A DNA stretch of 64,000 bases from the NCBI GenBank assembly GCA_016700315.1, contig CP065013.1, positions 193,449 through 257,448 on the forward strand, given 5' to 3'. Within the stretch, counting starts at the first letter, position 1, and every line of letters begins with the position of its first letter. Below, piece by piece: positions 31,773 through 33,826 of this stretch. The position numbers and the translations under genes are program-made. Origin of the DNA: Candidatus Saccharimonadota bacterium. GTDB taxonomy: Bacteria > Patescibacteriota > Saccharimonadia > Saccharimonadales > SZUA-47. Under the pieces are notes generated by a model. That model made no database searches. It had not been told where the DNA came from and worked only from the letters and a program-made list of their open reading frames with translations.

Positions 31773-32062
31773 TCGGCGCTCGGCCCCCTTGGGGCCTAGC
31801 TTTACCGCCCTACTTTCTTGTGCTGACAAGAAAGTAGGCAAAGAAGCAGCCCCTGGCTTCAGGCTCTTTATTGTCTCGTAGTCAAAAACGACAATGCTCT
31901 GACAACTCAGAAGATTAGTGAATTACACTAATCTTCTTCAAACACGTCACTCACTCTAATTGTCGTTTTGACACTCGTCAATCAGGAGCCTGAAGAAGGG
32001 GGTTAGCTTCTAGATACGATTACTATGGCGGCTATACGCTGGTAGTTACATATTAATTACAG
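31773..32062 (-). repeat. structured repeat element, copy A (reverse orientation)
   Basis: Positions 31773-31998 are the reverse complement of 53803-54027 with 3 substitutions and 1 indel by eye. The vestigial 5' module overlaps the stop codon of the 32046 gene. Confidence 0.85.
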
Positions 32063-33347
32063 TAATGCCCGAGTCGGCCTTTTCGACGCCTACAGCTTCA
32101 ATTTTTGCTTGAAGCCTGCCGACCATATCCTTATATTCAGCTATTTTATCTTCTTTTTCAAATACTCCTGTTACCCCCAACATAGCCCCTATACCCATAC
32201 CGAATATACTATTTTGCAATAGACTTTTTAGGTCAATTCTATTATTTACATCCAAGTGTTCAAAGAATGACCTAACAGCAACCGCAACTTCGTCTGAATA
32301 GCCTGAATCTCGTTTGGCGGCATCTAGAGAGCTATTAACAAGCGTTCTAAAACTTGTTGCATCGTACGCATACCTATTTTCATAATGTTTTGGTTGTGAA
32401 ATTCTGTTTTCATCTCCATCACTAAAACTCGTTGATTTTCCTCCAATAATTGGAACTTCGACCGTATTACGCATCACAATAGTGTAAGCCATATGCCAAT
32501 ACTTATAGGCAAAGGATTTGACATCTATATCACGCTTACCGTCAACTTGTGTTACGGCGGGCTCGATACTAATTCCGGCTGCCTCCATAGCAAACCGAAA
32601 GGCCTTACCATGCGGCTCCCGTTCCCATCCATTAGCTGACTCATCTTCACCTTGGGTGGGTACAAACATATAATCGTGCAGGTCTTCACTTTTTCGGAAA
32701 TAATGCCGCATACCATTTAGTAGTCTAACTGCACTATCGATGGATATTGTTGGCCTATCTCCAAGTAGTTCAACCTCAAGCATTCCCATCTCGTCCAGCT
32801 CGATAGGATGCATAGTACGATCAGTCAGTAAATCAGGCTGCCACGAAGGTAAGGATCCTTCTGGCATTAATGAAAAGTGATGCTCAACTCCTTCGAGATC
32901 TTTCACTGCTTGCTCAGTTGCTGTGTGGCCTTGAAAAAGAAAGGAATTATAGCTTGCATCGTCGAAAGGATGCCTAGTAACTACCTGAACCCGATCAGCC
33001 CTCAAAGTGTAATCTTTATAACTACCACCTGCTACCCTATCCACATTTGGTCTTATTCCCCCCTGAACAGTCGTTGTCGCACCCCAAGAATCATTACCAC
33101 CATTAACTTTTTCAACAACTTCATATTGCCCTGCAAGAGCATTATCTAGTTTATGGTTTAGCTCGAATTGCAAGCTAGACACCCACCTGTCGCCATTTGT
33201 TAACTCGACTCCCCAAGCCCTTACCTGATCACCATACTTATCGTCTACATATCCCTGAGCAATATCAGCATACCTACCTGCCCTAATTGCCATATCAACA
33301 CCTGACTCACCTACTGGAACATTTAATCTCTCTCTCAGTTCTCGCAT
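32046..33347 (-). CDS. hypothetical protein (orphan, 434 aa from the preferred start)
   Basis: Long ORF. The ATG at 33347 has SD AAGGAG 8 nt upstream. No recognisable family or motif. Confidence 0.6.
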   Translation of the reverse strand: MRELRERLNVPVGESGVDMAIRAGRYADIAQGYVDDKYGDQVRAWGVELTNGDRWVSSLQFELNHKLDNALAGQYEVVEKVNGGNDSWGATTTVQGGIRPNVDRVAGGSYKDYTLRADRVQVVTRHPFDDASYNSFLFQGHTATEQAVKDLEGVEHHFSLMPEGSLPSWQPDLLTDRTMHPIELDEMGMLEVELLGDRPTISIDSAVRLLNGMRHYFRKSEDLHDYMFVPTQGEDESANGWEREPHGKAFRFAMEAAGISIEPAVTQVDGKRDIDVKSFAYKYWHMAYTIVMRNTVEVPIIGGKSTSFSDGDENRISQPKHYENRYAYDATSFRTLVNSSLDAAKRDSGYSDEVAVAVRSFFEHLDVNNRIDLKSLLQNSIFGMGIGAMLGVTGVFEKEDKIAEYKDMVGRLQAKIEAVGVEKADSGITVINM

Positions 33348-33478
33348 ATTTTTTCTCCTTTGACAGACAATATACACCATTCCATAAGGATAAACAAAAG
33401 CACTATTCTACATCTTCACATCAACTAACTATCACCCAGCATGAGCATTTTTAACTCACTGACCCCTACAAAAAATGT

Positions 33479-33500
33479 CGACATTTTTTGCACACGTATT
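33479..33500. promoter_or_regulatory. perfect 22-bp palindrome (operator-like)
   Basis: CAAAAAATGTC|GACATTTTTTG, about 130 nt upstream of the 32046-33347 gene. Confidence 0.4.
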
Positions 33501-33545
33501 CAATTTATGTTGCATTTACCTGCAAAAAATATAATTGGTTTAAAC

Positions 33546-33826
33546 CGTTAACATGCTGAAAAAGCATATTAACCACTATGAGAAGCTATTACCCCTTCTG
33601 AGAACTCATGAGGAATTGAATGCCAAAAACACAATTAGAGCGAGTGACGTGTTTGAAGCCAATGTATTCATTGGCAAGTTGTCAGAGCATTGTGTCTTTT
33701 GGCAATGAAAGCTTCAAGAGTTCGAAGCTGGGGCTGCTTCTTTGCCTACTTTCTTGTCAGTACAAGAAAGTAGGGCGGTAAAGCTAGGCCCCAAGAGGGC
33801 CGAGCGCCGAAACAGGGAGTTAGATA
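33546..33826 (+). repeat. structured repeat element, copy B
   Basis: Shares the 5' hairpin module, the conserved loop sequences and the 3' module CTTCTTTGCCTACTTTCTTGTCAGTACAAGAAAGTAGGGCGGTAAAGCTAGGCCCCAAGAGGGCCGAGCGCCGAAA. Confidence 0.8.

Follow-up and report, generated by a model that had tools for sequence, protein, structure and literature searches.

An orphan gene between inverted copies of a structured element in a strain-variable slot of a Saccharibacteria chromosome

In the dif modules of Acinetobacter plasmids, accessory genes lie between inversely oriented pdif sites for XerC/XerD, and the cargo of such modules consists of resistance, toxin-antitoxin and unknown genes (PMC6449649, PMC13141974). 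Here we describe a chromosomal locus of similar layout, found in a 64-kb stretch of contig CP065013.1 from a Candidatus Saccharimonadota bacterium (hereafter the window, meaning the whole stretch analysed), in which an orphan gene, Y, is placed between two oppositely oriented copies, A and B, of a structured element, the entire structure occupying the gap between two conserved genes, Z and X. In both systems one or a few unrelated accessory genes form a discrete module with inversely oriented repeated boundaries; the modules are shuffled between replicons or strains and contain no recombinase gene. The present cassette differs in being chromosomal, in belonging to a host from the Candidate Phyla Radiation (CPR), and in that its element also occurs solo; moreover, pdif sites are 28-bp protein-binding sites, whereas the element is about 290 nt long, with multiple covarying helices and conserved loops. 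A dif-like pattern applied with 3 mismatches to the interval 31.6-34.0 kb had no match, although the dif consensus of Saccharibacteria may differ from the pattern used.

Integron cassettes offer a second comparison, as in them, too, a single gene is joined to a short leader and, downstream, to a structured element which varies in sequence while keeping its fold, and the Pc/attI platform of integrons resembles the constant region next to copy B, which appears to supply the promoter here. In contrast to integrons, the cassettes are single rather than arrayed, a second inverted copy is present, and the element is branched and 2-5 times longer than attC. No integron integrase or tyrosine recombinase was found among the Pfam-scanned open reading frames (ORFs) of at least 110 aa in the window, or among the gene calls of loci L001 and L102, and inspection of the element ends by eye showed no consistent attC cores (RYYYAAC/GTTRRRY): the tail of copy B reads GTTAGAT, the tails of A, C and D and those from other lineages misfit, and the 5′ ends have no RYYYAAC.

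Composite transposons, such as Tn10 with its inverted IS10 copies or the Tn3-derived TIME composites, similarly bracket passenger genes with inverted repeat copies, the outer ends being best conserved, as is also the case here; the flanking of a passenger by two copies, characteristic of such transposons, is seen with copies A and B and with 7 further pairs. The BOX, REP/BIME and ERIC families are modular intergenic repeats that occur in many copies, are predicted to fold stably and often sit at gene ends. The element is likewise multi-copy, intergenic, modular and endowed with a stable predicted fold, but it is much longer, contains conserved unpaired motifs, keeps a fixed polarity with respect to its cargo, and is tied to strain-variable genes instead of being scattered among core genes. 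A relation to transposon guide RNAs (TnpB/IscB omega RNA, IS110 bridge RNA) found no support, as no cargo protein has a TnpB, IscB or IS110 domain.

CPR bacteria (Patescibacteria) have genomes of about 1 Mb with few recognisable mobile elements, and their strain-specific genes are thought to govern the epibiotic lifestyle; to our knowledge, almost no non-coding RNAs have been characterised in the phylum. The locus provides a testable handle on how these bacteria gain and trade strain-specific genes. Should the element be a functional RNA, it would represent a new multi-copy RNA class for the phylum, and should it be a substrate for recombination or transposition, a new cassette system; if the broader, tentative reading given further below is true, it would constitute an RNA-element-based counterpart of integrons or dif modules. 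A search of the literature on Saccharibacteria and Patescibacteria found no description of an equivalent element or cassette. In either case, accessory-gene slots in Saccharibacteria genomes can be sought with a covariance model of the element.

Gene Y and its flanking elements in the Z-X gap

The window is a segment of a bacterial chromosome with ribosomal RNA (rRNA), RNase P and transfer RNA (tRNA) genes, and its proteins have relatives exclusively in Candidatus Saccharibacteria/Saccharimonadales genomes. Element copies were sought with nhmmer and then with a covariance model built from 7 copies (R1), to which the bit scores refer. The locus is composed of the following features:

31168-31755, plus strand: gene X, coding for a 195-aa conserved membrane-type protein; right-hand conserved flank
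31752-32057 (approximate), minus strand: element copy A, RNA sense minus, core at 31805-32003; 172.5 bits
32046-33347, minus strand: gene Y, a 433-aa orphan ORF (ORFan) carried as cargo; stop codon TAA at 32046-32048, ATG at 33347, AGGAG preceding the ATG
33348-33437, minus strand: allele-specific 5′ leader of Y (ribosome-binding site (RBS), possibly part of the leader), replaced along with Y and copy A
33438-33546, no strand assigned: constant control region, common to the Y allele and to an allele with a 491-aa ORFan
33547-33830 (approximate), plus strand: element copy B, RNA sense plus, divergent from Y; 175.2 bits
33871-36717, minus strand: gene Z, a conserved 948-aa HerA/TraG-like ATPase (DUF8128); left-hand conserved flank

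Genes Z and X are convergent, and both are conserved. Relatives of Z, which in addition to DUF8128 matches DUF87, TraG-D_C and AAA_22 in Pfam, were used for comparison in the best 80 of 588 candidate genomic stretches, taken one per species-representative genome. About 70 species representatives share the conserved gene order infC, comM, Z, X, W, gyrB, gyrA, and the synteny of X is kept in about 70 Saccharibacteria species. From the stop codon of Z to that of X (TAG, 31753-31755), the median distance is 19 nt in 71 species (interquartile range 4-47), often with overlapping stops, as compared with 2115 nt in the window, where Y with copies A and B forms an insertion of about 2.1 kb. Since the junction normally measures about 19 nt, elements and cargo reached a site which otherwise holds nothing. 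No homologue of Y occupies the syntenic site in any of the approximately 70 species representatives examined.

Within the species, the content of the slot changes from strain to strain. Protein X, 99% identical, is found on at least 24 contigs. The window arrangement is present in L097, and also in L086 and L002, while in L092-L099 and L102-L105 (including GCA_041909835.1) the slot is filled, in the same orientation, by an unrelated 491-aa ORFan, and in L090 by tRNA-Tyr and tRNA-Phe, so that a single species has at least three alternatives. The presence/absence polymorphism which the initial annotation, made from the sequence alone, had proposed to look for is found, the region being absent in 71 species and replaced by other cargo in conspecific strains.

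The replacement has well-defined breakpoints. L102 and L001 (GCA_029781765.1, a near-identical genome to that of the window) are collinear at 98.3% identity, except that positions 7965-9754 of L102 replace positions 9911-11593 of L001. The right breakpoint is exactly the X stop codon, at GCCGACTAG, where the window ceases to match its conspecifics; the left one, at 33437/33438 (L001 versus L102), lies about 9 nt beyond a TTAAAAAT box and at a distance of 28 nt from a palindrome. It follows from these positions that copy B and the palindrome region are constant, and that the leader, the gene and the downstream element are swapped jointly. Copy B is kept unchanged in the 491-aa allele, the downstream element of which is of a different subtype: its central domain is another one, while outer helices, P6 hairpin and tail are kept.

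The constant control region contains the TTAAAAAT box on the cargo strand (33447-33454), a TATAAT facing copy B (33530-33535) and, between them, the perfect 22-bp palindrome CAAAAAATGTCGACATTTTTTG at 33469-33490, which occurs once in the window and had 0 matches in shuffles. In L092 and L102 this region is almost the same, in spite of their different cargo. The start codon of the 491-aa ORFan is merely 36 nt from the left junction, and its promoter would therefore have to sit in the constant region; the control region thus probably acts as a promoter.

As for the gene itself, the initial annotation had pointed to a 434-aa orphan between two inverted element copies, with a perfect 22-bp palindrome upstream, no recognisable motif and an apparent AT-richness, and every part of this description stands, the last in a mild form. 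With 433 aa and a stop codon, the minus-strand frame counts 434 codons (444 aa according to the ORF lister, by way of an upstream ATG), and it is preceded by the RBS AGGAG. Neither single-sequence nor profile searches yielded a match in Pfam, PADLOC, PHROGs, NCBIfam or PDB sequences; 3 relatives came from a word-indexed search of 5.8 billion proteins, and 4, two of them fragments, from an exhaustive profile search of 1.84 billion representative proteins. Y is a real gene, with a full-length homologue, the 432-aa P0003, 40% identical from end to end and with many invariant positions. A hydrophobic, Gly-rich stretch at residues 375-397 was considered as a membrane segment and found unconvincing, its mean hydropathy being just 1.2.

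The G+C content of Y is 42.5% versus a gene mean of 46.0% (z = -1.2), and at third codon positions (GC3) it is 32.7% versus 43.9% (z = -1.8), the third lowest among 46 genes. The initial annotation had set against its own proposal the case of a Y conserved in synteny without elements and ordinary in composition; instead, Y is absent from the syntenic site and its composition deviates mildly. Relative to L001, Y is 95.2% identical, with flanks at about 99%, and 48 of the 62 differences are concentrated in 32400-32800, a mosaic or fast-diverging block.

The genomic context of P0003 differs from that of Y, with spacers of 139 nt and 43 nt and no element, and the 31% homologue of the 491-aa ORFan, P0063, is likewise located elsewhere with no elements nearby; the cargo is thus independent of the elements. 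In L003 (11285-11300), the 3′ end of the element-free Y homologue reads ATTAATGCCCGTTAA, similar to the 5′ hairpin of copy D, ATTAATATGCCCGTTGGCATATTAAC, which may be a relic of an element formerly attached to this gene family, or may be due to chance.

A search for other element-flanked genes, also suggested by the initial annotation, yielded 7 pairs in addition to that of the window, from a total of three scattered lineages and metagenome contigs:

Window pair: gene Y
L102 pair: 491-aa ORFan
L021 pair: 471-aa ORFan with HEMLH, in the Z-X gap
L083, first pair: 359-aa ORFan and an APH(6)-type kinase
L083, second pair: P-loop kinase, in the Z-X gap
L083, third pair: 183-aa ORFan
L089 pair: 121-aa protein and an amino-acid kinase
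L084 pair: 231-aa ORFan

All 8 are inverted, with the 5′ ends inward toward 1-2 genes and the 3′ ends outward, and in each pair the first cargo gene starts 100-250 nt from an element 5′ end and diverges from that element. The cargo proteins are mutually unrelated; their common ancestry was rejected by an all-against-all BLASTP, which returned only the expected pairs. Cargo GC3 is 0.32-0.40 versus 0.47-0.61 for Z at the loci which contain Z, as might be expected of foreign or young cargo. Copies C and D in the window and the copy at L021 5221-5441 are solo.

Two observations were made at these loci. The 183- and 171-aa ORFans at L083 16915-17466 and L085 187-702 are weakly related (21% identity, E = 3e-6), and in both genomes an element copy follows the gene, making this the sole cargo family in two element contexts. 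In L021, a 32-nt inverted repeat, TAGAGTATAGAAGCTAGAGATTAGAGTATAGA, is located directly after the Z stop (12920-12951) and before the X stop (16276-16307), enclosing the whole 3.4-kb insert, including a VapBC (AbrB/PIN) pair which lies outside the element pair; it may represent a split native hairpin.

Structure and distribution of the element

In the element, an A/T box and a 5′ hairpin precede a covarying multi-helix core, which leads to two 3′ hairpins and a tail of the form GAAAUGGnUUU. Conservation starts with the A/T box and the 5′ hairpin, followed by CCAUGGUCUU, and ends after the two 3′ hairpins with GCGYCGAAAYnGGnUUU, both boundaries being sharp; A/T boxes of similar kind are found upstream of most copies. 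For 7 copies, RNAalifold predicts 38 pairs, 15 of which display compensatory double changes. For 16 copies, 91.1% of the cells are paired, compared with 38-46% in slid controls, and double-sided changes affect 18 of the 38 pairs (62 cells); neither the paired-cell nor the double-change value was reached in any of 500 shuffles. G-U pairs number 27 versus 14 A-C mismatches, and in 10 of 12 copies the folding energy is lower on the same strand. This G-U excess and strand folding bias point, moderately, to an RNA in the orientation assumed by the initial annotation. The element is most likely a small RNA gene, and as such would be transcribed.

The window contains 4 copies, versus none expected by chance. 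In addition to A and B, these are:

53703-54037, plus strand: copy C, solo, the most complete in the window; 171 bits
41334-41565, plus strand: copy D, solo, in the comM-infC spacer; 33.8 bits

Copy C has a predicted fold of -147 kcal/mol (z = -7.8) and is followed by a bidirectional terminator-like hairpin at 54066-54100, while in copy D the central domain is swapped for a different hairpin. The comM-infC spacer carries an element in L021 as well.

The details of the arrangement around Y given in the initial annotation, which had copy A directly 3′ of the gene and copy B some 200 nt upstream in the opposite orientation, were borne out as well. The outer arms of A and B (31773-31853 and 33730-33810) are 98% complementary over 81 nt, and the inner parts are 72-88% complementary, differing by hairpin-for-hairpin replacements. 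Copy A matches copy C at 98% identity over about 235 nt, and its 3′ tail abuts the X stop codon. Only a vestige is left of the 5′ module of A, without the hairpin of B and D, and it overlaps the final codons of Y including the stop: the TAA of Y lies in ATATGTAACTACCA, which equals the ATAT-TAACTACCA of copy D apart from one extra base, and which is a remnant of the 5′ module that is intact in B, C and D. Copy B starts with its 5′ hairpin (33547-33573), 200 nt from the ATG of Y, and continues with the core (33590-33778), after which come the P6 and P7 hairpins and a tail which ends, about 40 nt from the Z stop codon, in CTAG.

Full copies were identified by nhmmer and R1 in 2 other species representatives (L021 and L083) of the 80, and a pattern scan of metagenomes added six further element-bearing contigs. 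The three carrier lineages are dispersed over a GyrB+Z tree, and the relatives nearest to them are without the element. Many contigs break within an element copy. In a congeneric contig, L100, in which X is 81% identical, an element 5′ module (3015-3073) is located about 200 nt downstream of X on the strand of X, opposite to the window arrangement, and the contig ends there.

At the gathering threshold, none of the element copies had an Rfam match; when E-values up to 10 were allowed, the interval 31500-34100 gave just chance-level matches to microRNAs, small nucleolar RNAs and small RNAs, and three divergent copies searched with E-values up to 5 gave no match. A hammerhead or another ribozyme was rejected as an identity for the element, there being no match. 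The exact 22-nt motif of its 3′ module is absent from species-representative genomes and viral contigs, the core pattern has no viral match, and BLASTN of copy B found nothing in phage or plasmid collections. An element-encoded peptide was rejected as well: the ATG in CCATGG opens a 12-codon frame in some copies only, and this frame is not coding, since it is shifted or extended in L088, L089b and L087 and is wholly different in the window copies.

Origin and exchange of the cassettes

The observations to be accounted for are an insertion, an allelic replacement with defined breakpoints, covariation within the element, and the recurrent pairing of elements, 5′ ends inward, around unrelated cargo. 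On balance, though with considerable reserve, we favour a reading in which Y is carried by a modular accessory-gene cassette that outward-facing structured-RNA elements delimit and that strains exchange by recombination. Copy B and the adjacent control region with its palindrome would then constitute a constant platform driving whichever cargo adjoins it, and the exchanged unit would consist of the leader, the gene and the downstream element. Alleles would be swapped in the population by homologous recombination, plausibly following DNA uptake, for which the conserved flanks and the element/control region would provide the homology. Recombination is the simplest account of the replacement. Because copies A and B are inverted, recombination between them cannot delete the cargo; integration of the Campbell type at an element copy was rejected, since it would result in direct rather than inverted repeats.

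Several points weigh against this reading. The strand preference of the element is only about 2:1 (G-U versus A-C), and a scan of 31.6-34.0 kb for consensus sigma-70 promoters and terminators gave background levels. Matches to the element are weak or partial in 3 of the 8 pairs, with E-values of 7e-4 to 0.03 in L083, and the pairs of the window and L102 are not independent, as copy B is common to both. Counts of solo versus paired copies are biased by the many contigs that end inside an element, and the survey covered about 20 kb per genome around one conserved gene. An AlphaFold prediction of the Y product from a 4-sequence alignment had a predicted local distance difference test (pLDDT) score of 38.5 and gave no usable model. 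Finally, homologous recombination leaves unexplained both the first formation of two-copy cassettes and the exclusive 5′-inward layout, and for this reason a transposon-like origin remains a serious rival.

A broader version of the favoured reading is put forward only tentatively, and we would sooner doubt than assert it: Saccharibacteria, perhaps together with other CPR bacteria, might possess an undescribed cassette system in which structured RNAs of about 290 nt, or their folded DNA, bound accessory-gene slots and actively help to capture, insulate or exchange their contents, a copy with the operator-like palindrome forming the fixed platform and "gene plus element" being mobile.

The initial annotation had likened the layout to a composite or foldback cassette, or to a gene with expression bounded by the elements. 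Of these, the cassette is upheld by the insertion, the other cargo in strains and the recurrent inverted pairs, and expression may be bounded by the elements, whereas the foldback or composite transposon mechanism did not gain such support. As a non-autonomous transposon of this kind, the unit would have been inserted whole at Z-X, with the inverted copies as structured terminal repeats and the enzyme encoded elsewhere. Such an origin would suit the fixed polarity of the inverted ends in 8 of 8 pairs, the 98% identity of the outermost 81 nt of A and B as against 72-88% in the interior, the patchy phylogenetic distribution, the contigs breaking inside copies as they do for a multi-copy mobile repeat, and the occupation of the tight Z-X and comM-infC sites in distant lineages, which fits a target preference. 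We nonetheless consider it unlikely. No matching transposase, terminal binding repeats, target-site duplication or second site typical of composite transposons were found: the CTAG at both outer borders is the tail consensus of the element itself, with ends not fixed to the base and with no close relative offering an empty site, so that no duplication can be defined; every Y or 491-aa cassette with flanking DNA sits in the Z-X slot; and the sole transposase in the window is IS30-like, with inverted repeats (AAGTGCAACAC...) unlike the element ends. Moreover, the two ends can differ in subtype, as in L102 with its B-type copy and variant copy, the compensatory changes in internal helices and the conserved loops point to selection on the folded strand, and viral, phage and plasmid collections contain nothing that matches the element.

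It is more improbable still that intergenic repeats of the REP/BIME or BOX type accumulated independently and that Y was acquired separately, with no functional unit. While solo copies, modularity with interchangeable domains as in BOX elements, and the existence of cargo homologues without any elements would all agree with such a coincidence, the 8 pairs all fall into one of four orientation classes (p roughly 1e-4 to 1e-5 if random), and the fully covered gaps (Z-X in the window, L102, L021 and L083; rnc-cargo in L089) enclose exactly the non-conserved genes. In addition, replacement within the species takes one element copy along with the gene, at a junction which is otherwise empty.

The position of the left junction, about where transcription would start downstream of the TTAAAAAT box, and that of the right junction at the 3′ tail of a co-directional element, together with the similar A/T boxes upstream of most copies, bring to mind an RNA intermediate, in which the exchanged unit is one transcript, the 3′ element serves as a handle for reverse transcriptase, and the complementary DNA is integrated. 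We regard this as very unlikely: the idea draws on a single allele pair with its two junctions, such a transcript would not include the upstream copy, which is divergent, the convergent two-gene cargo of L083 (5910-8024) misfits a single transcript, and no reverse transcriptase is encoded in the window or neighbouring loci, the nearest match being an RNase H/RVT_3 protein at 43243-44133. Least credible of all is an invertible, phase-variable segment in which recombination between the inverted copies flips Y relative to outside promoters, for although the 98% identical 81-nt arms could support it and the L021 cargo is oppositely oriented relative to Z, all of the approximately 30 conspecific contigs and genomes inspected show the same orientation for a given allele, no gene for an invertase was seen up to about 10 kb away, and the cargo has its own leader, with a control region in common with the divergent copy.

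Other features of the window

The insertion sequence (IS) to which the transposase belongs is situated just upstream of the 5S rRNA gene:

12660-13709: IS30-family insertion sequence with inverted repeats AAGTGCAACAC...; transposase at 12662-13684, 340 aa, HTH_38 and rve domains

Mobilisation of the cassette by this transposase was rejected, its inverted repeats being unrelated to the element ends.

A second, unrelated family of intergenic repeats is present at 28829-29172, 39285-39542, 46694-46805, 56504-56663 and 63726-63988, where a GTATCATGTATGAATT-type block is followed by arrays of 7-nt units (TAGACCC / TAGTCCC / CTATCAA); several copies precede genes, namely comM, the gene at 46858 and those of the divergent gyrB/W region. 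Between W and gyrB, conspecific strains carry a 428-aa Peptidase_M16 gene (L102 12462-14108, corresponding to about 28707-29274 of the window), which is missing from the window and from L001 and has no adjoining element copy.

The 3′ end of tRNA-Asp and its terminator hairpin (59367-59446) are duplicated 334 nt further on (59701-59781), with 94% and 85% identity; no second tRNA is called there, and the duplicate could be an attachment (att)-site remnant or a decayed tRNA copy. The rRNA region (13891-22170) is unusual in containing LAGLIDADG endonuclease ORFs at 14706-15194 and 20060-20449 and a match similar to group II intron D1-D4 at 20458-20539; the 23S match spans 3116 nt versus a model of 2925 positions, and tRNA-Ala and tRNA-Ile are located between the 16S and 23S genes on the opposite strand.

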